DNA from: a virus
Taxonomy: Duplodnaviria; Caudoviricetes
IMG/VR virus record: IMGVR_UViG_3300030372_004604
Span: 1-60,299 of that record
Length of the DNA stretch: 60,299 bases
Strand: one strand, 5' to 3'
Made by a program: the position numbers and the translations under genes. Under the pieces are notes generated by a model. That model worked only from the letters and a program-made list of their open reading frames with translations, had not been told where the DNA came from and did no database searches. Positions 439-59,916 of the stretch are shown here, one piece after another. Each line of letters opens with the position of its first letter. The stretch's first letter is position 1.

Positions 439-1439
439 CCTAAACTCCTAAAAAAGGTTAAGTATTGTTCACCAATTATTTCAGGCTCATGCTGTTTTAA
501 ACTGTCAAAACCATTTTGTCTAAAATCTTGTAGCACGGTATCGCTCATAGGCATTTGCAGAACTTCAGCAAGTTGTTTTGCTGTTTCTATAACGATGCAG
601 TTATAGTTTTCTCGCATGTCATCAGGTGTGTCTAAAAGCCACTCCCTATGAATAATCGGAATACACCCTGCATTCCATGCTTCTAACCAAGTATATTGAG
701 TGCCACCCCCATCGCCTTTTATAAGCGTCATATCTACATTAAATATGTAGTCACACATTAGATTAAACGCATAGTCATTTTCTCTTGGGTAATGTGCTTT
801 AGACTGTACCCACTCTGGGTACTTAGGCACTATTTTAAATTTAGTATAGAGCCTGTTTTCAAAACCCCTTATTACGATCTTTTTGTTTTCAGGTAACAGC
901 CTATTTGCGTCTAACAAAATTTCCGTATGCTTGTCAAAATCAATACGAGAAGTGCTTATAGCTAAGTGTTTTCTAGATGCAAAAGGCAACTCTTTTTGTA
1001 CATAGGGGTGTCTTATAAACGTAGGTCTGTAAGGTAACAGTATAGAGTTGTTTGCCAAGGGTAAAGTTTCTACCCCTCTTTGTCTAATAACAACACACCT
1101 GTTCATATCCAACGGCTCTGGTAAGTTTTTTAATTCAGTAGGGTCGTGAACAACTATAAAAGCATTGCCGTCATGGTACAGGGTGTCTGTGGTTTTTTTA
1201 AAGTTTTTAGCTCCTGCTACGATTAACTTAACATTTGATCGGGCAAGAGCTTCTTCCATAGATATGTTTCTGTACCGTTTGTCATAACCAAAGTTTCTTG
1301 TTCTTTTTTCACTTCTAGGTCTAATTTTAAATAGGCTTACCTCTGCTCCTACTGCTTGCAATGTATCTATCAAATGAGAGGTGTAAGTAACCCACCCTCC
1401 ATAAGTATTAGGGCTGTTATAAAAAAGGTCTACTTTCAT
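435..1439 (-). CDS. GT-B fold (GT4-like) glycosyltransferase, candidate DNA-modifying enzyme
   Basis: N-terminal YGGW loop, STSRIDFDKH, and DGGGTQYTWLEAWNAGCIPII resembling the GT-B sugar-nucleotide binding motif; ATGA-coupled to both neighbours. Confidence 0.7.
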   Translation of the reverse strand: MKVDLFYNSPNTYGGWVTYTSHLIDTLQAVGAEVSLFKIRPRSEKRTRNFGYDKRYRNISMEEALARSNVKLIVAGAKNFKKTTDTLYHDGNAFIVVHDPTELKNLPEPLDMNRCVVIRQRGVETLPLANNSILLPYRPTFIRHPYVQKELPFASRKHLAISTSRIDFDKHTEILLDANRLLPENKKIVIRGFENRLYTKFKIVPKYPEWVQSKAHYPRENDYAFNLMCDYIFNVDMTLIKGDGGGTQYTWLEAWNAGCIPIIHREWLLDTPDDMRENYNCIVIETAKQLAEVLQMPMSDTVLQDFRQNGFDSLKQHEPEIIGEQYLTFFRSLG

Positions 1440-2377
1440 TGCACAACCCCTTGGGGCAATGGCTCACTGCTCTGTGTAAACTTACTGCGAGGTTTGCCTT
1501 GGCCTAATCGTACTCGTTCATACTTATCCCATTCACACAAGCTATGCTCTATAGTACGCATATCTATTTGGTCGGCAGGAACATGGTCACCCACAAGGTA
1601 TCCGTTACAAGGGTAATCTTTTGCAACCATTTGCAATAACTCTTGCATACCTTCGTTGGCTACCTCTTGAGTCATGCTTTTTGTTAAGGGCTTATCCCAA
1701 ATTCTATTCAACCCACGTTTTGCTCCAGGACCTGCATTGGCCCATGAGAACTTATCTACGGCATTTTTCAAAACAGGCGTGTAGTTTAAATCAGTTACAA
1801 CTTCGTAAGACATAAACCCACCACCTCCCCAACCCCTGTACTGTGATAATTTTTTATGGGTAGCTTGTAAGGATTGTGAAGACTGTGCAGAAGCAACAAT
1901 GTCTTCTGCATATTTATGTATTGGTTTAAGAAAATGGTCAACAACAACATCTGCTTTAGGTAATTTCAACCCTTGGTTTGTAATGATATACGCACCAGTG
2001 AAAGTACGCTTACCATCAGCTATCCTGTTTTTAATAAGCTGTTTAGTATATTCACCATCCCATGCAGATGTGCCAAGACTACTAACAAGCCTGACCCAAC
2101 CATGCTCTTCTGCAAATTCAATTGTGCCTACCATCCTAAACAAACAGCAATTGAAAATTATTTCATCGTGTGGCCTGTTATCGTTAGGTTTAGTCCAGTT
2201 GTTACGCATCCAAAGGGTAACCCTATCGTTTTCACGGAAGGGGTTTGTAAACTTATACTCTTGGAGTATGGGGTCTTCTGTCCATTCAGACCTTGGTACA
2301 CCCATGTTTCTCCGTTGGTATATGGCGTGTCTTTCATTTATCCAATAGAAAAACCTTTCTACGTTTTCCCTGTTCAT
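1436..2377 (-). CDS. aGPT-Pplase1-like (alpha-glutamyl/putrescinyl-thymine pyrophosphorylase clade 1) DNA base-hypermodification protein
   Basis: FFYWINERHAIY...WTEDPILQEYKFTNPFRENDR, FTGAYII, GFMSYEVVTDL, NAGPGAKRGL, IEHSLCEWDKY are characteristic of this family. Confidence 0.8.
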   Translation of the reverse strand: MNRENVERFFYWINERHAIYQRRNMGVPRSEWTEDPILQEYKFTNPFRENDRVTLWMRNNWTKPNDNRPHDEIIFNCCLFRMVGTIEFAEEHGWVRLVSSLGTSAWDGEYTKQLIKNRIADGKRTFTGAYIITNQGLKLPKADVVVDHFLKPIHKYAEDIVASAQSSQSLQATHKKLSQYRGWGGGGFMSYEVVTDLNYTPVLKNAVDKFSWANAGPGAKRGLNRIWDKPLTKSMTQEVANEGMQELLQMVAKDYPCNGYLVGDHVPADQIDMRTIEHSLCEWDKYERVRLGQGKPRSKFTQSSEPLPQGVVQ

Positions 2378-3049
2378 TTACTTTTCTCCTAACGGCTGGA
2401 AGTGTGGGTTATCAATTTTTATAGCACCTGCTTTCACTGCTATGCGTAAATCCATCCTGCCTCCAGGAGAAGGGTCTAGCTTACGCAATGCGGAAATTGC
2501 TTCACCTACTGTTTGGGAAGCTAGAACAACTTGCATATTACGATAACGGTTTGTGCCTTGTTTAATAGGAGGCTCATCCATTAACTTAATAATTTGGCAT
2601 TCATTACTCCACCCTTTTTTTACATCTGGTGTTTTTTTAATAGCATCAAAAGAACCACCCTCTTTTTCCATTTCATCTAGCTCTAATGTTATTCTAGTAT
2701 GTGGGTCTACATCTGGTTGCTCTGTAACTACTTCAACACTTGAAGTATCGCCTTTAACAAACCTATTCATTTTTGTTTCCTCTTCTGGTTTCCAGTATTT
2801 AGCTTTGCTTGCGGTAAGAACCCAAAAATTTTCTGCAGAACTGGGTTTACCAAATGGCTCACAAACAGAAGTTATTTCCTCTTTTGTAAATAAATGGTTT
2901 AACCGATCTACTGTTTCCTTACCATCAAACACATAAGAATGTTCATTAACAGCCTTACATGTTTTGACTGCTTTTAGTGTTTTAAATTTATAAAACAAAA
3001 ATGGAGGCCCATCACTTCCAGGAACTCCATCACATATTGCATAAAACAT
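2378..3049 (-). CDS. Hypothetical protein, first gene of the modification operon
   Basis: 223-aa ORF with AGAAAGGAAG RBS; abuts the next gene. Confidence 0.65.
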   Translation of the reverse strand: MFYAICDGVPGSDGPPFLFYKFKTLKAVKTCKAVNEHSYVFDGKETVDRLNHLFTKEEITSVCEPFGKPSSAENFWVLTASKAKYWKPEEETKMNRFVKGDTSSVEVVTEQPDVDPHTRITLELDEMEKEGGSFDAIKKTPDVKKGWSNECQIIKLMDEPPIKQGTNRYRNMQVVLASQTVGEAISALRKLDPSPGGRMDLRIAVKAGAIKIDNPHFQPLGEK

Positions 3050-4169: not shown

Positions 4170-4469
4170 TTAATGTAATTGAGGTTCAGAAGGAACCTCA
4201 CTGTCTGGTATTTCTTGGCTAGGCAAAGCATTAAACTCATCAAAGCTAATGTCTACCCAACCTACATGTAGTGGACTAAATGCCACTTGTACACGCATCT
4301 CTACGTCATTGTGTGGCATATTAAAACAAACAGGTAGCATTGCTTCGTCTGGTATTGTGTTCAACGCATCCTGCAACATGTCACGGTTCAGTGACCTGTT
4401 CCTGTTAGCTTGTATTGCGTTTTCATTGCTCGCAATAAGCTGTTCTTTGGTGAAGTACTTTACTATCAT
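4170..4469 (-). CDS. Hypothetical protein (start trimmed to MIVKYF)
   Basis: AGAAAGGT RBS upstream of ATG 4469. Confidence 0.6.
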   Translation of the reverse strand: MIVKYFTKEQLIASNENAIQANRNRSLNRDMLQDALNTIPDEAMLPVCFNMPHNDVEMRVQVAFSPLHVGWVDISFDEFNALPSQEIPDSEVPSEPQLH

Positions 4470-9736: not shown

Positions 9737-11176
9737 ATGCGTTACAAATTTAAATACAAACCATATAAGCATCAGCTAGATGCTTTAGAAAAGTCGTGGG
9801 ATAAAACCTTTTTTGCTCTGTTTATGGACATGGGTACAGGCAAATCTAAAGTATTAATAGATACGATTTCTATGCTTTACGATAAAGGTAAAATAGATTC
9901 TGCTCTGATTATCGCACCCAAAGGTGTGTACCGTAACTGGGAAAGAAAAGAACTGCCCACCCATTTACCCGATCATATACAGGCCAACATTGTTGTATGG
10001 TCGCCAGAAAAAACAAAAAAGAAACAAGCAGAGTTAGCTACGTTAAATGAACCGTCAGATAAACTGCAAATATTTTTAATGAATGTAGAAGCATTGTCCA
10101 GTAGCAGAGGGGTATGGTCTGCCTCACAATTTATACTGTGCCATAAAACAATGCTCGCTGTAGATGAAAGTACAACTATTAAATCTAAAACAGCGAACAG
10201 AACTAAAAGCCTTATAAAAATATCAAGAAACGCCCCTTACCGTAGGATACTTACAGGGTCACCTGTTACTAAATCACCGTTAGACCTATACACACAATGC
10301 GAGTTTTTAGAACATTATGTATTAGGGCATTCTTCGTTTTGGACATTCCAAAACCGTTATGCAAAATTGATACGCAAAACAATGGGAGCGCATTCATTTA
10401 ACCATATTGTAGGATACCAAAACCTAGAAGAGTTAAATGGTATAATAGAACCGTTTTCATTTAGAGTGCGTAAAGAAGATTGTTTAGACCTGCCTGACAA
10501 AGTGTATACAAAACGCAGTGTGGAACTCACTAAAGAACAACGTGTTCTGTACGATCAAATGAAACGCAATGCTGTATCCTTTATAGAAAACGAAGGCATT
10601 ATGTCTGCCTCTACAGTGCTAACTCAAATACTAAGGTTGCAACAAGTATGTTCTGGTTTTGCTAAACTGGAAGATGGGCGAATGATAAAAGTTCCCAACA
10701 ACAAGTTGCCTGAGTTACTATCTGTATTAGAGGAAACAGATGGTAAGGTAATCATTTGGGGTAACTTTACACATGACCTAGAACTGATACAGGAAGCCCT
10801 TATAAAAACATATGGGGCAGAAACAGTAGAGCTGTTCTATGGTAAAACTCCGGCAGAAGAACGGCAGTTAATTGTAGAGCGGTTCCAAGACCCTAACGAT
10901 CCATTGCGGTTTTTTGTGGGGCAACCCAGAACAGGGGGCTACGGACTTACTCTTACAGAAGCGCATACAGTTATATACTACAGCAACGGCTATGACCTTG
11001 AAATAAGGTTACAGAGCGAAGATAGAGCGCACCGTATAGGACAAACAAATAAAGTTACTTACATAGATATAACAGCAGAAAATACTGTAGACCAAAAGGT
11101 TATCCAAGCCCTGCGAAGCAAGATAGATATAAGTACAAAGGTACTAGCTGAAGGGTATAAAGAGTGGATAATTTAA
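9737..11176 (+). CDS. SNF2-family (SF2) helicase
   Basis: MDMGTGKS, VDESTTIK, LTGSP, GGYGLTLT, QSEDRAHRIGQ. Confidence 0.9.
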   Translation: MRYKFKYKPYKHQLDALEKSWDKTFFALFMDMGTGKSKVLIDTISMLYDKGKIDSALIIAPKGVYRNWERKELPTHLPDHIQANIVVWSPEKTKKKQAELATLNEPSDKLQIFLMNVEALSSSRGVWSASQFILCHKTMLAVDESTTIKSKTANRTKSLIKISRNAPYRRILTGSPVTKSPLDLYTQCEFLEHYVLGHSSFWTFQNRYAKLIRKTMGAHSFNHIVGYQNLEELNGIIEPFSFRVRKEDCLDLPDKVYTKRSVELTKEQRVLYDQMKRNAVSFIENEGIMSASTVLTQILRLQQVCSGFAKLEDGRMIKVPNNKLPELLSVLEETDGKVIIWGNFTHDLELIQEALIKTYGAETVELFYGKTPAEERQLIVERFQDPNDPLRFFVGQPRTGGYGLTLTEAHTVIYYSNGYDLEIRLQSEDRAHRIGQTNKVTYIDITAENTVDQKVIQALRSKIDISTKVLAEGYKEWII

Positions 11177-11835
11177 TACTTGGGGATAGCTCTGCTGTAA
11201 TTAAAACCTTTGCAGATGAGCAATTTGATACAGTGTTTACCTCACCCCCATACAATAGAAAAAGGAACGATAAGTATGAAGATTTTACTGATATTTCTGA
11301 CGATTATTTTAATTTTCTTGTGGAATCGATAAACCAGTGTTTACGAGTATGTAAGGGTAATGTTTATTACAACATACAAAAGAACTTTTATAATCGGGTA
11401 GAAATATACAAATTGTTTGGTCATTTTGCCGAACAAATAATAGAAACAATCGTTTGGAACAAAGCTAACCCAACTCCAGCAGGTGGTGATGCGGTTACTA
11501 ATTCTTACGAGTATATATTAGTATTGAGCAATAATAATACGGCATTAAAAGCAAACAATACATACACCAAAAATCATTTTTGTACGCCTGTGTATTCAGA
11601 AAACCCATACAAAAAACAACATAGGGCAGTCATGCACCCTAGAGCAGTAGAGTATATACTGCGATCTTTTTGTAAACCAAACGAAACTGTGCTTGACCCT
11701 TTTATGGGGACAGGAACAACAGGGGTTGTGTGTAAACAGTTTGGTATGACATTTACAGGTATTGAGTTAGTAGAAGAGTATTACAATATATCTAAACAAC
11801 AAATGAGTAGTTATACACAACCGTTCCTACTTTAA
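11164..11835 (+). CDS. DNA amino-methyltransferase (N4-C/N6-A, beta class)
   Basis: TSPPY catalytic motif precedes the DPFMGTGTT SAM-binding motif. Confidence 0.9.
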   Translation: MDNLILGDSSAVIKTFADEQFDTVFTSPPYNRKRNDKYEDFTDISDDYFNFLVESINQCLRVCKGNVYYNIQKNFYNRVEIYKLFGHFAEQIIETIVWNKANPTPAGGDAVTNSYEYILVLSNNNTALKANNTYTKNHFCTPVYSENPYKKQHRAVMHPRAVEYILRSFCKPNETVLDPFMGTGTTGVVCKQFGMTFTGIELVEEYYNISKQQMSSYTQPFLL

Positions 11836-43081: not shown

Positions 43082-44547
43082 TAATAGTAACTCCTTATCC
43101 TAGGGGCAGACTCTTCATCCTCATAATCTTCCGGATGCTGAATAAAACCACCCTCTCTAAATCTTCGCAACGCCTGTGTCACCGTATCAACATAATCATC
43201 ATGCTCTCCGGCAGGAAACGCCGCACACTCCTCAATAACTTCTTCCGACCAACGTGTATCTGGAGCCCATACTAATCCTGATTCTAGTAAAGGTGCAATA
43301 GAATTCACTCTGGTATGTTTATCATTTCCTCTCGACGGGCTATAATTCTGTACCGGAATGCCCATGTTCCGTAACTCCTGAGTCAACGGCATACCCGAAG
43401 CTTTCGCCTCAATCAACACACACTCAGGGTCCCAATACTTATACTCCTCTAACGCCTTACGACGCAAGTCCGGAAAATCCCACCTGCCTCTCTGCGCATC
43501 AACCAAAAGTATATTCGCAGGAGCACCATCATAAGGATAAAAAACTCCCCACGTTGTTATAGCACTAAAATCCGCAGACTCCTTCTTACTATACGCTGTA
43601 TCATAAGACTGCATCACATAATCCAAATTAGGCAAATCTTCTTTTTTCCACTCCTGCCACCACTCACGTTTAAGTATCGCAGCTCCCTCACTCGTCGGGT
43701 TCTGCTGCCACTGCGCTTCCCACTTACCTACAGACAAACTTCCCTTAACAGCTAATAAATCTTCCTGCTTCCAATACTCAGGCCACAACGGTTTATTCGT
43801 CTCCGGCATCAAAGCAGGGAACTCCACCACCTCCCACTTATCAGCCAACACATCCCGCGCTTGCTGGCGCAACAACTTACCCGTCAAATCGTTTTCTGCC
43901 CAACGAGTCATTATAATTACTATACTCCCTCCGGGCTGTAACCTTTGACGAGGCCCAGAAGTATACCACTCATACGCATGCTCCAACGCTGTAGGGGACA
44001 AAGCATCTTGTTCGGAATGCGGGTCATCAATAATCAACAAATCCGCACCACGGCCCGTCACCGCTCCACCAACGCCAGCCGCAAAATATTCACCACCCTT
44101 AGACGTTTCCCATCTTCCAGCAGCTTGGCTATCCGCTCGCAACTCCACATCAAATATTCCACGGTACTCCTGAGAATTCATCAAGTTCCTAGTCTTACGT
44201 CCAAACCTAAACGCCAACTCCGCAGTATGCGTAGTCTGCATTATCTTCAACGTAGGCCGCTTACCCATCAACCACGAAGGCAACAAGTAACTTCCAAACT
44301 CACTCTTCGTATGTCGGGGGGGCATATTCACAATTAAACGCTTTAAATCACCACTAGCCAAACGATTAAACTTCTCAGCCATTATTCCATGGTGGCGACC
44401 ATTCACAAACTCAGGCCAAACCATTCTACAATACGTCATAAAATCATTCTGCGCAGCTTCAGCCTTACCCAAATAACTCGCACGATCCAATAACGTAGCA
44501 AACTTCTTCAAATGTTCCTCAGGAACATACTCTAAACCACTATCCAT
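43081..44547 (-). CDS. terL: Terminase large subunit
   Basis: MPPRHTKS Walker A, IIDDPH Walker B, MTRW, YDTA, IEAKASG, HDDYVD. Confidence 0.92.
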   Translation of the reverse strand: MDSGLEYVPEEHLKKFATLLDRASYLGKAEAAQNDFMTYCRMVWPEFVNGRHHGIMAEKFNRLASGDLKRLIVNMPPRHTKSEFGSYLLPSWLMGKRPTLKIMQTTHTAELAFRFGRKTRNLMNSQEYRGIFDVELRADSQAAGRWETSKGGEYFAAGVGGAVTGRGADLLIIDDPHSEQDALSPTALEHAYEWYTSGPRQRLQPGGSIVIIMTRWAENDLTGKLLRQQARDVLADKWEVVEFPALMPETNKPLWPEYWKQEDLLAVKGSLSVGKWEAQWQQNPTSEGAAILKREWWQEWKKEDLPNLDYVMQSYDTAYSKKESADFSAITTWGVFYPYDGAPANILLVDAQRGRWDFPDLRRKALEEYKYWDPECVLIEAKASGMPLTQELRNMGIPVQNYSPSRGNDKHTRVNSIAPLLESGLVWAPDTRWSEEVIEECAAFPAGEHDDYVDTVTQALRRFREGGFIQHPEDYEDEESAPRIRSYY

Positions 44548-44786
44548 AATTTCTTATATATCGATAATTTTTCAAACACAATGAACCTATAATCAATAAC
44601 AACCATAAAGGGGGGTAGGTCAACTGTTTAAGGATCCTCATAGTTGACTTTTTGTGAAATGTTTTTGGAACATATTGAAATGTTCAGAACAGGGTAAAGG
44701 GTGCTACTAATACCACCCTTTGTGCTCAGGGGGGGCCGGCAAAAACCGTGCCAGTTTTGCCGCACCAAAAATACGGGGTACCTTAT

Positions 44787-44815
44787 AAAAAAGGGGCCGG
44801 TAAAAAACCGGCCCC
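44787..44815 (-). terminator. Intrinsic terminator of the island gene
   Basis: GGGGCCGG-TTTTTTA-CCGGCCCC followed by TTTTTT. Confidence 0.8.
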
Positions 44816-44825
44816 AGTTAAAAAC

Positions 44826-45386
44826 CTACTTGGTTTTTGCGGTTGGCCCAACAACTTTAAGGGTAACAAAACTATTACCCCAAGTTGGGCTTTTAGGTGT
44901 AAACCCACCATTAAGCAAAGCCAATAAAACTACTGGGTTTTTATAACTTTGCCCGCCCGTTGGTATACCAAACTTGTTGGTATTGGCCCAAGCACTTGGC
45001 TTGTTGCCACAACTAACACTAGCATTAAGCCAGTTGTGCAAGTTAGTGGGCGCGTTAAGCGCGTGGTATAACATGGTAGCGCGTGGCCCATATACGCTTT
45101 TTAAACCCGTTGGGGTTTGGGCTGGCGTTGCGCCTACCATGTAACCGCCCATTTTTTTACAGGCTGGCCCACCACGCAAACCAAAGTTAATACTGTTATA
45201 CCCAATACCTTTATTTGGTATTATTTGCACATTGCTAGGTTTAGCCATTGCATTAGCCGTTAGCCAATTTTGGTAACTAATAAAGCATGGGCCGTTTTGG
45301 TAAATTAACGCCTTGCCCAAAGTTGCGCCAATGTTTAGTGCCGGTGCAGTGGTAAGCAACTGCGGTGCTGTTTTACTTAATGCCAT
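44826..45386 (-). CDS. 186-aa basic protein with no Asp or Glu; paralogue of 51936-52388
   Basis: TAAAGGGT RBS before ATG 45386; shares K.P.VLLALLNGG(F/Y).P.S..WG..(F/Y)V.L.V with its paralogue. Confidence 0.8.
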   Translation of the reverse strand: MALSKTAPQLLTTAPALNIGATLGKALIYQNGPCFISYQNWLTANAMAKPSNVQIIPNKGIGYNSINFGLRGGPACKKMGGYMVGATPAQTPTGLKSVYGPRATMLYHALNAPTNLHNWLNASVSCGNKPSAWANTNKFGIPTGGQSYKNPVVLLALLNGGFTPKSPTWGNSFVTLKVVGPTAKTK

Positions 45387-45453
45387 TTTGTATAACCCTT
45401 TAAAATGGTGGGGCCTTGGCCCCGTTGCGCTAGCCAATTGCTAACGTAACAAC

Positions 45454-45482
45454 ACGTTAGCACGTTGCTATATTAGTGTAAA
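45454..45482 (-). promoter_or_regulatory. Sigma70-type promoter of the island gene
   Basis: TTTACA-17 nt-TAACGT with TG extended -10; overlapped by the inverted repeat TGCTAACGT/ACGTTAGCA (45439-45462). Confidence 0.6.
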
Positions 45483-45820
45483 CCCCTATAGGCTATTTTT
45501 ATTTATGGGCATGTATGGCAGCATTTTAGTTGCCTAGGCAACTATTTTGGCCGTGACGCGACGCGACTTATGCACCCACAGAGGAGAACGCATGATCAAT
45601 CATTATCATATGTCCTCTCTCTTCGTAATCTCAATCTTGTACGTCTGTCCTCTCTCTTCGTAATCCTAATATGGGTCGCTGTACCACGCCAGTAGACACA
45701 CAACTACAAGACAAATAACAAATACCATTGGTCTATACCTTTGCTAGTTAACAATGGTTATTGTATACCCTAAACAAATAATCAAGGGTTGTCTTATGTT
45801 GTACTATTTGCTCTCATCAA

Positions 45821-45910
45821 TAACGATCAATAACGATCAATAACGATCAATAACGATCGCTAATGATCAATGCCGATCATCCATGATCAGTGCTGATCTA
45901 GATCAAGATC
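45821..45910. repeat. 10-bp-periodic GATC array
   Basis: GATC at 45825, 45835, 45845, 45855, 45865, 45875, 45885, 45895, then 45901 and 45907; first units are exact TAACGATCAA. Confidence 0.9.
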
Positions 45911-45983
45911 AATCATCATCTGTCATCGTCTCTCGGTCGTAATCTATAGTCCTCTCTCTATCGTAATCAATCATCGTCAATCA

Positions 45984-46451
45984 TCATCTCTCGGTCGTAA
46001 TCTCTCCGTCGTAATCATCCTTGTCATGACGATCCGAGGATGATAGAATATGATCAATCACTCCATGCCAGTCAAACGGTGACTCGCAACTCCAGTCCGG
46101 TATCAATGGTTCATGGACCTTGGCCTCTCCCATCTTAATCGCACGACCACCCCCAAATATATTCAGGGTAGAAGACGAAGGATGATGAACCAAGTTGTAG
46201 ACTTTGCCTTTATTCATGAAATATCTGGTTTGCCACGCAATTTGGTGAGGGCGTAGCGCGATATTTTTTAATGACTTTAACCTGTGGACTTTCAATTCTA
46301 GCCAAAAAGCCTGACCATTCAGTATGCCATGCAAGTCAGGGATTCCTGGAGTTGCCCAAGACTCTAAGCGTGTCCAAAACACGCCTAGGTCCTGAGTTCC
46401 TTCTCTTAGTTTATACCAAAGTTTACTTTCAGGTTTACTTGTCAAGCCCAC
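45984..46451 (-). CDS. PD-(D/E)XK nuclease, VRR-NUC/resolvase-like
   Basis: PE..LW, RLES...GIPDL, WLELKV, RPHQIAW. Confidence 0.75.
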   Translation of the reverse strand: MGLTSKPESKLWYKLREGTQDLGVFWTRLESWATPGIPDLHGILNGQAFWLELKVHRLKSLKNIALRPHQIAWQTRYFMNKGKVYNLVHHPSSSTLNIFGGGRAIKMGEAKVHEPLIPDWSCESPFDWHGVIDHILSSSDRHDKDDYDGEITTER

Positions 46452-46933
46452 CTCAACCCAAGCTCGGGCATGTATTGGTTAAAGCTGTCGCGGTCATACT
46501 CACTTATGCCACAAACCCTGTGGTATGTTTCGTCAATAGTAATAACGTACAGGTAATCAATGTCACCATGTATGCCATTGGTTATCTCATACTTGCCTGT
46601 CAACTGCATAGGCTCGTAATGTGTTTGCTTGTGCCTCGGGTTCAGTATTTTACGCACCCCGTCCCATGCTTCATGCTTAACTAACAGGTCAGCATAGAAC
46701 TCTAATAAACGGCTTGGCTCGGCAAACAACTTTTTTATACCCTCATTAGTGTGTGGGGCTAACTGTTCATCGCCCTGTTTTACAAACTCTTTGTAGTTGT
46801 CTGCATACCAACGTATAGCCTCAGCATATTTTTTTAACTCAGGTCTCACACTACTGGGGTAACCATCGTAATGTCTGTAAATGTACTTAACTTGGTCACC
46901 GCACTCTAAAACTATATTACATCTTGTACCCAT
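46442..46933 (-). CDS. Conserved hypothetical phage protein
   Basis: MGTR.NI...IYRHYDGYP; GAGAAAGGGT RBS. Confidence 0.7.
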   Translation of the reverse strand: MGTRCNIVLECGDQVKYIYRHYDGYPSSVRPELKKYAEAIRWYADNYKEFVKQGDEQLAPHTNEGIKKLFAEPSRLLEFYADLLVKHEAWDGVRKILNPRHKQTHYEPMQLTGKYEITNGIHGDIDYLYVITIDETYHRVCGISEYDRDSFNQYMPELGLRWA

Positions 46934-47973: not shown

Positions 47974-48357
47974 TTAACTGGGTATATGGTCAAGTTTAAT
48001 ATGGTCAGCTAAATGCTGTTTAATTTGAGCGCAAACTGTTTTGCACTGGTGGTCGGTGGTTATGGTGTGTACTTGGCTAATATAGTCCATGCTTGCTGTG
48101 TCCATGTACAACTGTGGGTCATCATAAATGTGGTATACCATCACGGTAACTAGGCCACGCACACTCGTAATAATTAGGCGTGTGGTACTGTCAACTTGGT
48201 GTATGTATGCCTCATTGTTATTGTTGCCTGTCGGTGTTATTTGGCTATAGCCTGTTGCGTCGCTGTTTGGGCCACCTAGTAAATGGTCGTGGTGTGCGTC
48301 AAGGTGCGCTAACTTTAACTCGGCAAGTACTTTATCAAACATTGTTGCTTGTGTCAT
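47974..48357 (-). CDS. Hypothetical early protein (paralogue of 48446-48814)
   Basis: GAGAAAGGGT RBS; shared TRL..TS ... DY...V..IT...QC...V..IK. Confidence 0.7.
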   Translation of the reverse strand: MTQATMFDKVLAELKLAHLDAHHDHLLGGPNSDATGYSQITPTGNNNNEAYIHQVDSTTRLIITSVRGLVTVMVYHIYDDPQLYMDTASMDYISQVHTITTDHQCKTVCAQIKQHLADHIKLDHIPS

Positions 48358-48361
48358 TTGT

Positions 48362-48446
48362 AAACCCTTTCTCGGTTTAATTGGTACTATATAAATGGTA
48401 GCCCAAGCCGTAATCAAGGGCTACCATTATTACCTCTTTTGTGCTC
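48362..48446 (-). promoter_or_regulatory. Cassette element (ACAAAAGA box, TAGCCC..GGGCTA stem, TAnnnT, CCGAGAAAGGGT)
   Basis: One of at least 7 similar intergenic copies. Confidence 0.7.
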
Positions 48447-49011: not shown

Positions 49012-49503
49012 TTAACCTAAAATAAAATCGTAATCCTCAAGTTCATCAACGTGTACCACTACCATCTTGTTAAAATAAGTATCAAGGGTAGGTGTCAGTA
49101 CATGTTTTACTGTGTCAGGTGGTAAAAAGTAAAACTCCAAGCGTACATCAATACCGTACAGTGCCGTGGTGTCACGGTCGGTAGGCGGTATGTGGTAGCT
49201 AATTTTCAAATCCTGTTCAAGTTTGGTACTTTTGTCACGCAACAAACTTAACTCATTAACAACTTTGTCAACGTTTTCCCTGTTAACTGCACCGCCCTCA
49301 GTAGGGTAATGCTTTATGGGGGTGTAGTGATCTGTAGCAATGTATTGCTTTATGGGTAGGACAGTGTGCATAAAATCTGTAATAGCTTTGTCAATTGCAG
49401 GAAAAGCAAGTTGATTTACCCTACGCTCATATGGGCAGGTTACCTCTTCAATGTAATTGCTATAAGGAACAAAATTTTCAAGATGTTTGTGTAACTGTGT
49501 CAT
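49012..49503 (-). CDS. Hypothetical early protein
   Basis: Preceded by a cassette element and RBS. Confidence 0.7.
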   Translation of the reverse strand: MTQLHKHLENFVPYSNYIEEVTCPYERRVNQLAFPAIDKAITDFMHTVLPIKQYIATDHYTPIKHYPTEGGAVNRENVDKVVNELSLLRDKSTKLEQDLKISYHIPPTDRDTTALYGIDVRLEFYFLPPDTVKHVLTPTLDTYFNKMVVVHVDELEDYDFILG

Positions 49504-49506
49504 GTG

Positions 49507-49592
49507 TAAACCCTTTCTCGGTTTGTTGTGTACTGTTTATATAGTAGCCCCCAAAATTATCAGGGGCTACCATTATTGTGTCTTTTGTGTTC
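49507..49592 (-). promoter_or_regulatory. Cassette element
   Basis: GAACACAAAAGA ... GTAGCCCCTGATAATTTTGGGGGCTACTAT ... CCGAGAAAGGGT. Confidence 0.7.
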
Positions 49593-50462: not shown

Positions 50463-50930
50463 TTACTGCCACACGACAGCGAGGTTCATAAAAGTCCATG
50501 GTCCTCGGCCATCTGTTGCCCTTACCGTCACTACATAGGTATTGGTCGGTGTGCCTCGGTTGGCGTTACTTGCAATCACAACTCGTCTTTGTGGTTGGCT
50601 TAGTCCGCACCAGTTGGGCGTTTCCCATCGCACTATTTCGCTACCTTGCGTGTCAGGGTAAAACCCAGTGCTATGTATCGGGGCAGGGGCATCGTTGTGC
50701 CAAAATATGTCACCCTTGGTTTTTTTAGCCAAGGCAACAAGATCTCTAAACAACCCTGCATATATATAGTTTTCGTAGGTAGTATCACCTCCTGCAAGTG
50801 GGCTGTCTGCAAACATGTCCCACTCTTCGGGGTCCATGCTATTGTTTTCCGTTAACAACACATCAGCTTCTTCCTGCTTCAGTGCGTAGGGGCAGTATTT
50901 AGGTTGAACAAATTTTGGGTACTGTGTCAT
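50463..50930 (-). CDS. Hypothetical early protein
   Basis: RBS before ATG 50930; ends NLAVVWQ; terminator at about 50426-50453. Confidence 0.7.
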   Translation of the reverse strand: MTQYPKFVQPKYCPYALKQEEADVLLTENNSMDPEEWDMFADSPLAGGDTTYENYIYAGLFRDLVALAKKTKGDIFWHNDAPAPIHSTGFYPDTQGSEIVRWETPNWCGLSQPQRRVVIASNANRGTPTNTYVVTVRATDGRGPWTFMNLAVVWQ

Positions 50931-50934
50931 GTGT

Positions 50935-51019
50935 AAACCCTTTCTCGGTTTAGTTATTACTATAAATAGTATAGCCCCCAACATTGTCGGGGGCTATGGC
51001 TATTTAGTCTTTTGTGGTC
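50935..51019 (-). promoter_or_regulatory. Cassette element
   Basis: CACAAAAGA ... ATAGCCCCCGACAATGTTGGGGGCTATACT ... CCGAGAAAGGGT. Confidence 0.7.
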
Positions 51020-51447
51020 ATGTGTAATTGCACAAAGTATGCTGAACCTGCGCTTGACATAAAGCAGTTATTCCAGCTTAACTCAACGATTTTGTAATTG
51101 TAGGTGTGAAACACTTTAGCTTCGTGGTATACACCACCCTTTTCATCAAGGCGGTACTTATCATACTTGTTGCCCCTACCCATTTCACATAACAGGTAAT
51201 TGTTCATGCCCTGTATGTGGCCGTCTAGGTTATCGCGGTAAATGGCATGGTCATGTATTTCACGGTCATGGTAATACCATTCCTCATACTTGGGCAGTAC
51301 TGTCTGTATAAACGGCACAAGTAATTTTTCAACAGTGTTGCCTCTTGCTTTTTCTTCATCACTGCCGAACTCCCATGCAAACTGGTTGTTAACCCATGTT
51401 TCCGTGGTAGTTGCCTGAAATTGTTTGGTACTGGTTAAATCAAACAT
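51004..51447 (-). CDS. Hypothetical early protein
   Basis: RBS before ATG 51447. Confidence 0.7.
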   Translation of the reverse strand: MFDLTSTKQFQATTTETWVNNQFAWEFGSDEEKARGNTVEKLLVPFIQTVLPKYEEWYYHDREIHDHAIYRDNLDGHIQGMNNYLLCEMGRGNKYDKYRLDEKGGVYHEAKVFHTYNYKIVELSWNNCFMSSAGSAYFVQLHMTTKD

Positions 51448-51450
51448 ATG

Positions 51451-51536
51451 TAAACCCTTTCTCGGTTTAGTTAGTACTATATAAATAATAGCCCCTAACA
51501 ATGTCAGGGGCTATAGTTATTGTATCTTTTGTATCC
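51451..51536 (-). promoter_or_regulatory. Cassette element
   Basis: ACAAAAGA ... ATAGCCCCTGACATTGTTAGGGGCTATTAT; core identical to the copy at 51892-51930. Confidence 0.7.
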
Positions 51537-51935: not shown

Positions 51936-52388
51936 CTATTTGCTCACAGTTAATTTAACGTATGGCGTCCCCCAGTACTTACTGCTAGGAGAGTAACCGC
52001 CATTTAACAGGGCGAGCAGGACATTGGGCTTTTTGCGTGAATGTCCTAGCTTGGCACATTGGTTAAGGATAAACCCTAACCGTTTATCACCATTTATGCC
52101 TGTTAGAAAAGCTGATTGAATGAAGTGCCGTACACCTCCTTTCTTACCACCCCATCCAAAAGGTACGTCCTCAGGGCTTTGTACAAGGCATTGTATTTCA
52201 ACATTGTTTTCGTTGCCCCCTGCTTCAACTCTCACAAAACTTATAATATCATCATAAGTAAGTTCTTCGCCGTTAAGCATTAACTCAGCAATAACTGGCT
52301 TTTTCTTGGCAACTGCTTTTACTATTTTTTTAGAGGATGCCTTGGCAGTGCTAGGAGCCTCATTTTTTAACGCTACTACTTTTGTCAT
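51936..52388 (-). CDS. Hypothetical protein, ordinary-composition paralogue of the island gene
   Basis: KKPNVLLALLNGGYSPSSKYWGTPYVKLTV. Confidence 0.75.
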   Translation of the reverse strand: MTKVVALKNEAPSTAKASSKKIVKAVAKKKPVIAELMLNGEELTYDDIISFVRVEAGGNENNVEIQCLVQSPEDVPFGWGGKKGGVRHFIQSAFLTGINGDKRLGFILNQCAKLGHSRKKPNVLLALLNGGYSPSSKYWGTPYVKLTVSK

Positions 52389-58617: not shown

Positions 58618-58969
58618 ACTTATCTTCAAACCTTTGTATGTCGTCTTCGCCTAAATAAGAACCATGTTGCACTTCAATTACAACTAAAGGTTGAAGCCCA
58701 ATATTAACCAAACTATGTATCCACCTTTTTGGTATGGTTATACATTCTTGCACTGAAAGTTGTGTTGTTTTCAATTTAAAAAGTTTAGGACCTCTAACCA
58801 CGTTAGCTGTTCCATGAACAACCACCCAGTTTTCTGCCCTATGTTCGTGTGCCTGTAAAGACAACTGCTCTCCTGCATTCACCAAAATGTTTTTTACTTT
58901 GTAATGAAGCCCTTCCTCTAACACTTGGTAATGGCCCCAAGGTTTTTCTACCACCTTCTCATCAACCAT
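58604..58969 (-). CDS. Cupin, mannose-6-phosphate isomerase type II C-terminal-like
   Basis: KPWGHY.VL, LSLQ.H.HRAENWVVV.G, IEVQ.GSYLGEDDIQRFED.YGR. Confidence 0.85.
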   Translation of the reverse strand: MVDEKVVEKPWGHYQVLEEGLHYKVKNILVNAGEQLSLQAHEHRAENWVVVHGTANVVRGPKLFKLKTTQLSVQECITIPKRWIHSLVNIGLQPLVVIEVQHGSYLGEDDIQRFEDKYGRA

Positions 58970-59916
58970 TCTACACACGCCTTTCTCCATGCTAAGTCTT
59001 CAATGTTTTCTGCATGGCGTACTGCCTCATCTATATTTTTTGCCTTCCAAGCACCCCAAGATAAATCCATGGGCGTAAGCACTTGATCAAAGTAAGAGTT
59101 AGTATATGTATTGGTTTCATTGTTCATCCAGCGTTGTAACTCTTTATCAAAACAAGCAGGTTCATCAACCAATGGTTTAGGGTTGTAATTCCTATTATCA
59201 CCTAAATGCAGGTAAGGATCGTAATCAGGCTCAATGTTTTTTACTTTTTCTAAAGTATCTACATAAGCGTGTAAATTATTACTAAACTGATAATATGTAC
59301 CTACCGCGCAATCTATCCTTGCCGCCATGTATTCTAACAGTACAGACATATGAACAGCGTTTGCTCCATATGCCCCCCATATCATATCATTGCTCCTATT
59401 ACATACGGTCATGTTTAACGTGTTGTTACGAACCCAAAACATGATTTGCGTATTGCATGGGTGGTCTTTACCAGTGTTTTCTATAGAAAAATCTTTTATA
59501 GGATCCCACATAGAAACAACAGTGCGGCGATCGTTTTCATAATGAAGCAAGCGATGAACGGCTATTTCTAGTTGGTCTTTGCCAAACCAGTTTTTCCATC
59601 GGTAACCATATGCTCCATTAATAGTTACACCGTCATCGCTATAGCTACTCATCCTACCATTGTAGTTAGAAATCCACTCAACTTCATTTTTACCTGCTAA
59701 CATCCAAAACGATTCCATTAAATGGAAGTAAGGGTTAGCGTCACGCATAGGGTAAAACAATACTCTTTCCCTGCTATGGCTGTAAGAAGTCATAACGGGG
59801 CAAGGAAACTCTAATGCTTTACCATTGCGTGTGTCTACCTCAACACCTTTAGTTTCTAATGCCTGTACTGCTAGGTACAATGCTTCACTTACATTTCTTG
59901 CATTTATATGTTGCAT
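58948..59916 (-). CDS. Thymidylate-synthase homologue, likely dUMP hydroxymethylase
   Basis: RDANPYFHL.E..W.L.G, GAYG.RW, DHPCN (catalytic Cys), NRSND..WGAYGAN with Asn at the dUMP-specificity position. Confidence 0.8.
   Translation of the reverse strand: MQHINARNVSEALYLAVQALETKGVEVDTRNGKALEFPCPVMTSYSHSRERVLFYPMRDANPYFHLMESFWMLAGKNEVEWISNYNGRMSSYSDDGVTINGAYGYRWKNWFGKDQLEIAVHRLLHYENDRRTVVSMWDPIKDFSIENTGKDHPCNTQIMFWVRNNTLNMTVCNRSNDMIWGAYGANAVHMSVLLEYMAARIDCAVGTYYQFSNNLHAYVDTLEKVKNIEPDYDPYLHLGDNRNYNPKPLVDEPACFDKELQRWMNNETNTYTNSYFDQVLTPMDLSWGAWKAKNIDEAVRHAENIEDLAWRKACVEWLMRRW

Follow-up and report, generated by a model that had tools for sequence, protein, structure and literature searches.

Why should a single gene of a phage be written without a pair of letters that the rest of its genome uses freely? 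The question is raised by IMG/VR virus record IMGVR_UViG_3300030372_004604, the complete linear genome of a marine phage (60,299 bp; CheckV completeness 100%), which was analysed at its full length and hereinafter is designated the window. The minus strand of the window holds nearly all genes. One of them, located just upstream of terL, is an open reading frame (ORF) of 186 codons that starts at ATG (44826–45386, minus strand); it hereinafter is designated the X-type gene, and its product the X protein. The X-type gene lies within a segment of 828–829 bp (44727–45555) that is free of GA and TC on both strands, hereinafter designated the island.

A transcription unit free of GA and TC

GA or TC occurs 5736 times in the 60299 bases of the window, i.e. 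0.095 times per position. The widest spacing between neighbouring sites is 829 (44726 to 45555), and the runner-up is 66. Run length multiplied by frequency gives a score of 78.8 for GA/TC and at most 16 for all other dinucleotide pairs. No run of similar length exists for any other dinucleotide, whether counted on one strand or both. Among 65 ORFs scanned, the X-type ORF alone has no GA on the sense strand, and the other 64 contain 4.6–10.5 GA per 100 nt. GA/TC is the sole pair missing from islands of this kind; specifically, TG/CA is present at normal frequency (rho 1.07–1.08).

When the X protein is re-coded in the codon usage of the genome, 2000 draws give a mean of 35.9 GA/TC sites and a minimum of 23, compared with zero observed, which excludes chance. 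If only site-free codons are allowed, the codon junctions alone are expected to create 22.6 sites (minimum 10), and again none is observed. In 20 island ORFs pooled, Ser is encoded solely by AGC and AGT, and GAN, TCN, ATC, TTC, CTC, GTC, GGA, AGA, and CGA codons are all absent. The non-coding flanks are likewise free of GA/TC, over ~170 nt ahead of the ORF and ~100 nt behind it. The islands of the window and of a relative with 98% identical TerL (locus L002) differ at 233 of 800 aligned bases, and none of these differences creates a GA/TC site; random substitution between the two creates 62.9 sites on average and at least 41, and none of 5000 runs ended without a site. The purge is exerted at the level of nucleic acid rather than of protein composition, and this ban restricts the X protein to an 18-letter alphabet without Asp and Glu. 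A sequence-only reading that preceded this analysis had noted that the 186-residue product has no Asp or Glu and that its Ser codons are confined to AGY; both observations hold, with D = 0 and E = 0 in the X protein and with AGC or AGT as the only Ser codons in the pooled ORFs.

The island matches the control elements of the gene. A ribosome-binding site (RBS), AAAGGG (45396–45401, minus strand), is located 9 nt ahead of the ATG and is conserved in all 21 upstream regions compared. Judged from its letters, it is the usual start context of the phage re-spelled without GA: four other genes share the AAAGGGTTTACA-ATG context, where it is preceded by CGAGA, and the island version lacks CGAGA. Further upstream is a putative promoter (45450–45490, minus strand), with a −35 element TTTACA (45482 to 45477), a 17-nt spacer, and a weak −10 element; the promoter-like site of the relatives reads TTTACA-N17-TATATT. 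A consensus promoter scan did not list the TTTACA site at 45450–45490. The motif GGGGTTTACA was considered as a shared promoter and rejected, since its four other occurrences are RBS plus spacer directly before start codons; the island promoter is thus called from spacing and conservation only. A perfect palindrome of 16 bp (18 bp with the flanking T and A), resembling an operator, is located at 45528–45543. It has a single match in the genome even with up to three mismatches. Relatives have one to three copies of the palindrome, on either side of the ORF and always within the island (seen in L005, L006, L014, L018, L027, L030, and L043).

Downstream of the ORF, a terminator scan identifies an intrinsic terminator (44793–44815, minus strand) that begins 11 nt past the stop codon and comprises a 9-bp stem with eight G-C pairs followed by a T-run. 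The hairpin is retained in relatives through compensating changes. A second hairpin (44738–44772, minus strand), read from the sequence and partly found as an inverted repeat, is terminator-like in relatives. The 3′ edge of the island is located a few bases past the second hairpin, where a conserved C-run precedes TGAG, and the 5′ edge in relatives is an A-tract just ahead of the promoter-like site. Across 41 loci, the island spans ~120–200 bp ahead of the ATG and 95–160 bp beyond the stop codon. Its edges therefore coincide with A-rich DNA, promoter-like site, palindrome, RBS, ORF, and two hairpins, namely one full transcription unit. In the clade of the window, the purge extends 70–115 nt upstream of the likely start site, palindrome included, and past the first strong terminator. 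In other clades, it spans little beyond the ORF.

A conserved element of ~45 nt that ends in RBS, TTTACA, and ATG is also found on the minus strand ahead of four small ORFs (48270–48400, 49420–49550, 50845–50975, and 51360–51490), indicating that the mechanical ORF list begins these genes ~18 codons too early.

The protein family and its states across relatives

The X-type ORF is a real gene under purifying selection, with a ratio of nonsynonymous to synonymous substitution rates (dN/dS) of 0.19–0.35 against six relatives. The X protein has 16 Lys and Arg residues (K+R) and an isoelectric point (pI) of 10.1. Its paralogue in the window, hereinafter designated A-type (51936–52388, minus strand; identified by BLASTP and alignment), has 150 residues and ordinary composition (D+E = 12, pI 9.7). 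The whole family is strongly basic, relaxed copies and A-type members included (K+R 16–26, pI 9.7–10.1).

BLASTP aligns the X protein with the A-type paralogue over the C-terminal 34 residues only (59% identity, E 5e-10). Intermediate members of the family align with residues 12–148 of the A-type paralogue at 28–35% identity, and an alignment of 28 sequences shows that the homology between X and A-type is full-length; certain G, R, L, P, and W residues are invariant in it, and its indels keep the reading frame. The motif that the sequence-only reading had seen shared with 51936–52388 is therefore real and belongs to a homology that runs through the whole protein. No D/E column of this alignment is invariant, and the D/E positions of the paralogue are occupied by A, N, Q, P, or S in island copies. 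The same reading had proposed that one copy was re-spelled in an 18-amino-acid alphabet to satisfy a constraint on DNA. The ban at the level of nucleic acid stands, but a single re-spelling is too simple an account: a family tree of 87 rows, on which D+E of 0 or 1 counts as acid-free, has 45 acid-free rows and requires at least 13 state changes, at least three of them forced by well-supported branches. Consistent with a constraint on nucleic acid, homologues without an island carry 7–10 D/E.

The AlphaFold2 (AF2) models of the two proteins are confident, with predicted local distance difference test (pLDDT) scores of 78.2 for the X protein (28 sequences) and 88.2 for the A-type paralogue (67 sequences; core above 94). 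Both models predict the same order of elements, in which a helix and a strand are followed by three or four helices and a closing strand. No clear fold match was found. Specifically, Foldseek against PDB gave best E-values of 2.3 and 1.5 for the two models, with none at E ≤ 0.001; a fold search of BFVD with one model gave a best E-value of 3.5; and VIA-align against PDB gave best Z-scores of 3.9 and 5.1, under the tool's stated noise level of 7–8. The C-terminal 80 residues (70–150) match winged-helix domains of Fur, PerR, BlaI, MecI, ORC, and MCM at Z 2.4–3.5, which is below the noise level; we regard a possible winged-helix likeness of the C-terminal half as a weak lead, not a finding. Sequence searches gave similar results: the X protein matches no Pfam and no PHROG family, the A-type paralogue has one sub-threshold match (13.4 bits vs a cut-off of 25.4), the family profile has no match among PDB sequences at E ≤ 1, and the Atlas neighbours are unnamed viral clusters.

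Dozens of related phages share the purge. A profile scan of viral contigs gave 24 loci. In 21 of them, the match lies in a stretch of 400 bp or more without GA/TC; one has a run of 310 bp cut by the contig end, and two (L016 and L017) have none. In the metagenome contigs, most of the protein is matched at 22 loci, 21 of which have a run of this length, and the other 23 loci hold the acidic paralogue, except for L052, where the copy is a relaxed one; the two collections overlap, and several loci duplicate each other. Complete syntenic ORFs (n = 41), down to 34% identity, comprise 34 that are free of D/E, four with a single D, and three with 7–10 D/E. Loci that span both genes contain two paralogues, an always-acidic A-type gene and an X-type gene just upstream of terL. 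A search of 1.84 billion representatives with the family profile identified 90 proteins at E ≤ 1e-3, many distant ones of which have D+E of 0 or 1. An alignment of distant acid-free members (A4) was too divergent for the retrieval of loci and was replaced by two narrower alignments.

The purge is found in several states. With hmmsearch, 221 family ORFs were found in the fetched loci, 160 of them distinct. Neither GA nor TC occurs in 42 of the 160; 16 have no TC and one to five GA, the leftover GA mostly in D/E codons; four (L080, L088, L074, and L075) have no GA and 6–23 TC; 23 have 6–12 GA with a mean of 22 TC; and 65 have more than 12 GA. D/E is absent from 49 of the 160, including four that still use TC codons. 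In the four loci purged on one strand, the GA-free runs of the sense strand have normal TC and extend over 583 nt (L080), 789 nt (L088, to the contig end), and 516 and 502 nt (L074 and L075). The run of L080 reaches from inside the promoter spacer to just past the terminator, and so approximates the transcript. In G005, the 5′ leader retains a GGAG ribosome-binding site.

The cassette is hypervariable yet strictly policed, which is the signature of an arms race: its identity is 34–99% between phages with 94–99% identical TerL. The acid-free clade of the window also encloses syntenic copies that are acidic (L016, L017, L052, and P0014). In such relaxed phages, the gene, promoter, and terminator are at the same place and the purge is gone.

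Three further observations were made on the relatives. In distant clades (L020–L025, L132–L134, and L142–L148), the acidic A-type gene is directly upstream of the X-type gene, in tandem, whereas the two are 7 kb apart in the clade of the window; the tandem arrangement suggests an old tandem duplication. In L100 (3803–4285) and L135 (3836–4316), the first ~480 nt of terL have no sense-strand TC, where the TC frequency is 0.04–0.05; depletion of one strand thus also occurs, in milder form, away from the family gene. In L088, a hydrophobic mini-ORF of 20 codons with its own RBS (4326–4388) is located within the GA-free run upstream of the family gene.

A proposed link to thymidine hypermodification, and competing causes

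The window encodes a 5-hydroxymethyldeoxyuridine (5-hmdU) DNA kinase (1436–2377, minus strand; Pfam PF18723, E 2e-51, 175.5 bits vs a cut-off of 25), the marker enzyme of post-replicative thymidine hypermodification. It is 33–36% identical to the kinases of cultured phages. An enzyme of the thymidylate synthase family (58948–59916, minus strand; Pfam PF00303, E 1.7e-22) adjoins the kinase module on the circular map and, judged from its family, is presumed to be a deoxyuridine monophosphate (dUMP) hydroxymethylase, an activity that sequence by itself does not tell apart from that of a methylase. An HD 5′-nucleotidase, a cupin, and a T4-endoV-like glycosylase are also encoded. The kinase is found in 16 of the 20 records that bear the family and in all 11 of those at ≥90% completeness; the four records that lack it are 22–48% complete, and because the genomes are related these counts are not independent. 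The ORFs that flank the kinase (435–1439 and 2378–3049, minus strand) match no Pfam or PHROG family at E ≤ 0.001, the aGPT-Pplase and amino-acid:DNA transferase family included; another enzyme may take the transferase role beside the kinase. These two ORFs are candidates for further steps of thymidine hypermodification.

Several other correlates were considered and rejected. The 334-residue one of these two flanking ORFs is present in G005, G008, G013, G014, and G025 and absent from 12 other related records; it looked promising as a correlate of the island (three genomes against three), and was dropped since it is absent in G001 despite a full island. 7-Deazaguanine at GA was dropped since there is no TGT or DpdA in the genome, where all control genomes matched. 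The N6/N4 DNA methylase of the window was dropped since it is absent in all five related genomes compared, two of which have islands.

Our favoured explanation is that the X cassette is kept free of TC so that it stays readable and undamaged at hypermodified bases, giving an early nucleic-acid-binding or anti-defence product. We hold it tentatively, at somewhat less than an even chance, because the modification, its TC context, the timing, and the activity are each reached indirectly. Specifically, 5′-TC-3′ would be the context in which thymine is hypermodified in this phage group, by way of 5-hmdU and the 5-hmdU DNA kinase. The sequence motifs of thymidine hypermodification were described as "not yet known" in 2018 (Lee et al., PMC5889632, in the available portion), and in the excerpted text of a later study hypermodified T in M6, ViI, and phiW-14 was placed in TG or TC from restriction-resistant sites and ascribed to the kinase (Flodman et al., 2019, PMC6449724). 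The X unit, having no TC, would then be the sole part of the genome that never bears the bulky modification. Unmodified host RNA polymerase could bind and transcribe it from the incoming DNA, and host enzymes that attack hypermodified bases could not damage it, above all on the template strand. Excerpts of two reports make pressure on modified sites plausible: host glycosylases act against phages with thymidine modifications (bioRxiv 10.1101/2025.10.29.685425), and END nucleases, against which phages have inhibitors, are directed at hypermodified genomes (PMC12191111). Since a lesion at a modified base would stop RNA polymerase on the template strand only, such lesions would account for lineages purged on one strand and for a relaxation that depends on the host. 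The X product would be a small, very basic, early factor that binds nucleic acid or disarms defence.

A stronger form of the same idea, in line with the candidate pioneer protein of the sequence-only reading, is a "modification-blind" pioneer gene, namely the only unit that the host polymerase can read and that the defences cannot break, whose product opens the genome or disarms defence. We consider this form somewhat less likely again. The roles put forward in the sequence-only reading (pioneer protein, reader, or anti-defence factor) would be compatible with the anatomy of the unit and with published work. Three genomes with the kinase and no island, together with a relaxed phage that is otherwise near-identical, cut against an obligatory pioneer role.

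These and other facts weigh against a TC-directed modification as the cause. The context in print is TG or TC, but the islands have TG at normal frequency. The complete genomes G006, G011, and G012 encode the kinase together with two paralogues, both acidic, and show no island for GA/TC or any other dinucleotide pair. In G025 (the contig of L052), the X copy is relaxed and contains D/E, with ~30 GA/TC in the unit and the same promoter and RBS, although its modification genes closely resemble those of the window: identity is 98.7% for the kinase (over the 75 residues that the contig includes), 92% for the 334-residue ORF beside it, and 95% for the ThyA-like gene. A relaxed copy beside near-identical modification genes indicates that the purge is conditional and not an intrinsic need of the modification machinery, and the swapping of strict and relaxed states among near-identical backbones suggests that the pressure differs from host to host. 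PaMx11 and PhiJL001, cultured phages with the kinase, show no island in their first 50 kb. The other early-looking genes of the window all carry template-strand TC at normal density. Finally, the four one-strand ORFs, together with the 23 partly GA-depleted ORFs with normal TC, show an asymmetry for which a DNA-level reading needs an extra assumption, namely that the template strand matters most.

The same asymmetry, which the sequence-only reading had missed, keeps a cause at the level of RNA a live rival. A transcript without GA, and mostly also without UC, would survive an endoribonuclease (RNase) that prefers these dinucleotides, such as a host abortive-infection or CRISPR-associated HEPN RNase or a host-shut-off RNase of the phage; the X protein could then be made while other messenger RNAs are destroyed. 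Two Cas13b enzymes favour GA and UC. We take this to be the main rival and, on balance, improbable. It explains the one-strand and graded states well: the sense-only lineages have GA-free runs of 502–789 nt with normal TC, the run of L080 approximates the extent of the transcript, the 23 ORFs with 6–12 GA have TC equal to that of the 65 with more than 12, as a cost per site would give, and strict and relaxed states on near-identical backbones are what variable host defences would give. Cas13 orthologues also vary in their dinucleotide cleavage preference, according to the available part of PMC11417378. It explains poorly a purge of both strands that includes untranscribed DNA. With 42 ORFs free of GA and TC and 16 more free of TC, it needs a second specificity (UC) or a role for antisense RNA; the purge reaches 70–115 nt upstream of the likely start site and past the first strong terminator; the 5′ leader of G005 keeps its GGAG; and no RNase candidate was seen among the window proteins scanned. 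Distinctly less probable still is that the X protein is itself the reader, binding hypermodified TC sites to compact, shield, or silence the genome, much as TF1 of phage SPO1 binds DNA with hydroxymethyluracil, so that its own site-free gene would escape shut-off. The basicity of the whole family, the weak winged-helix-like matches (Z 3.0–3.5) to residues 70–150 of a confident model, the restriction of the family, in checkable genomes, to those with the kinase, and the two paralogues per genome where a locus spans both genes all fit such a protein. However, those fold matches are below the noise level of the aligner and DNA binding is only putative, a binder of duplex DNA leaves the one-strand lineages unexplained, and the A-type gene and the relaxed X copies hold many TC/GA sites.

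The remaining explanations do without either modified TC or a purged messenger, and each is much less probable than those above. The island could be a cis-acting element, part of a packaging (pac) site or origin kept unmodified or uncut, in which the ORF is incidental; its position between terS and terL, conserved in every locus that spans it, and the adjoining 420-bp iteron-like field with 11 GATC would fit. We consider this very improbable, since the ORF is kept open with dN/dS of 0.19–0.35, family-wide invariant residues, and in-frame indels, the edges track the promoter-like site and terminators, the purge in other clades is little wider than the ORF, and relaxed phages hold gene, promoter, and terminator in place without it. 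Hardly any weight is given to selection on an acid-free basic protein with missing GA as a by-product. The 49 ORFs without D/E, four of which have TC codons, speak for it, but GGA, AGA, and CGA codons, G/A junctions, all TC codons and junctions, and both flanks are purged too, and 35.9 expected sites against zero already contradict it. Mutational erosion, in which a TC-specific DNA deaminase or local hypermutation turned TC to TT and GA to AA, is equally remote. Islands are indeed rich in AA and TT (rho 1.43 and 1.51, vs 1.04 and 1.18 outside); GG, CC, and GC are enriched equally, however, the edges are sharp and fit the transcription unit, purifying selection acts on the protein, and no site was re-created by the 233 later substitutions. 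The same state is kept over deep divergence.

Genomic setting and known systems

Along the direction of transcription, the gene order is terS (47556–47014), an ORF of 163 residues, a VRR-NUC-like gene (46451–45984), a repeat field, the X-type gene (45386–44826), terL (44547–43081), and the portal gene. By TerL, the cultured phages most similar to the window are HTVC027P and HTVC023P, which infect Pelagibacter (58–62% identity), and no island was found in their 13-kb terL regions. A DNA search of deposited phages with 44400–45900 gave no match, as did protein searches with the A-type paralogue and with the distant acidic member P0045. Over 44300–46200, no Rfam family reaches the gathering score.

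The repeat field (45596–46017) adjoins the island upstream and is iteron-like, with seven GATC-containing copies phased at 10 bp, four copies of a 17-nt unit, and two copies of a 35-nt unit. The 445 bp from 45556 to 46000 contain 11 GATC, compared with 2.3 per kb genome-wide, and have a GA/TC density of 0.178, twice that of the genome. From its repeats, the field is a candidate pac site or replication origin. Relatives have related repeats (GTCAA or GTCGC runs) ahead of the island. On the other side, the segment between the island and terL (44548–44726), with a conserved hairpin inside, is near-identical even in relatives with strongly diverged islands; it may serve to control the structural operon and also as one recombination anchor for cassette exchange.

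Elsewhere in the window, the opposite strand has just two genes of notable size, for a SNF2-family helicase and the N6/N4 DNA methylase (9737–11835, plus strand). All five compared genomes share the helicase, and none of them the methylase. TC is scarce on the coding strand genome-wide (rho 0.65, vs 0.95 for GA). Two small genes are nearly without TC, with ~1 TC per 492 nt at 46442–46933 and ~1 per 444 nt at 47974–48417.

In its enzymes, the window resembles the kinase phages M6, ViI, phiW-14, and PaMx11, which share the 5-hmdU DNA kinase pathway (PMC5889632, PMC8989533, and PMC6449724, in their available portions); the window encodes the kinase together with the ThyA-like enzyme and the HD nucleotidase. 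No known amino-acid:DNA transferase family was found next to the window kinase with Pfam or PHROG. The dinucleotide-level specificity reported for M6, ViI, and phiW-14 in the excerpted text is T followed by G or C (PMC6449724), whereas in the islands TC is missing and TG is not. The portions available of PMC5889632, PMC8989533, and PMC6449724 report no modification-free island in the four phages.

The purge also has parallels in other phages and in an engineered system. Phages avoid recognition sites and carry anti-restriction genes, such as T7 ocr, in their leading regions. As there, motifs are purged to escape a DNA-reading activity, and a small, separately expressed gene shows the variation of an arms race. 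The usual avoidance concerns sites of 4–8 bp across genomes or entry regions, whereas here a 2-bp word is wholly absent from one unit, at the cost of two amino acids. Ocr, in contrast, mimics DNA as an acidic protein and has 34 acidic residues per monomer, according to an excerpt of PMC4872106. The X protein, with D+E = 0 and pI 10.1, is no acidic DNA mimic of the Ocr or Ugi type. Messengers without ACA, combined with the RNase MazF, are an engineered system for the production of a single protein. The likeness is a messenger that is rewritten without the cleavage word of an RNase and alone is translated; that system, however, is man-made and concerns a 3-nt word on one strand, whereas the purge of the X unit is natural, mostly on both strands, and includes non-transcribed DNA.

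Other modified-base phages provide parallels to the presumed product. Ugi is an inhibitor encoded by the uracil-DNA phage PBS2. Like Ugi, anti-END proteins (PMC12191111, in the part available) belong to phages with modified bases that need an early product against base-recognising host enzymes. Searches of Pfam, PHROG, PDB, and folds found no relation of the X protein to either, in sequence or fold. Neither anti-END genes nor the Ugi gene are known to be written around the modification. TF1 of SPO1, a phage with hydroxymethyluracil (hmU) in its DNA, is an HU-type protein that prefers hmU DNA. Like the X protein, it is small, basic, and presumably abundant, and comes from a phage with a substitute for thymine. 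In contrast to TF1, the X protein has no HU-family match in Pfam, and its model predicts an alpha/beta N-terminal part and a helical C-terminal part that ends in a strand.

The literature searched gave no account of a gene island that lacks a dinucleotide, nor of a phage protein family without acidic residues, although the supplements of hypermodification papers may hold motif data; both seem to be previously undescribed. If the favoured reading holds, the family is a natural experiment in reduced alphabets, with confidently folding members (pLDDT 78–88), ordinary paralogues alongside, and a D+E state of 0 or 1 that changed at least three times. The modification-blind form of that reading would further imply that Asp and Glu can be lost and regained more than once in proteins that still fold and function. 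If an RNase is the cause instead, a naturally cleavage-proof messenger would still be new. If the TC-free cassette is indeed kept clear of hypermodification, a conserved hole in a genome would give the context of the modification from sequence alone and flag uncultured phages that modify their DNA. It would also reveal a new layer of the arms race, namely a gene untouched by the modification or its readers, in which strict, one-strand, and relaxed states are swapped between near-identical phages.

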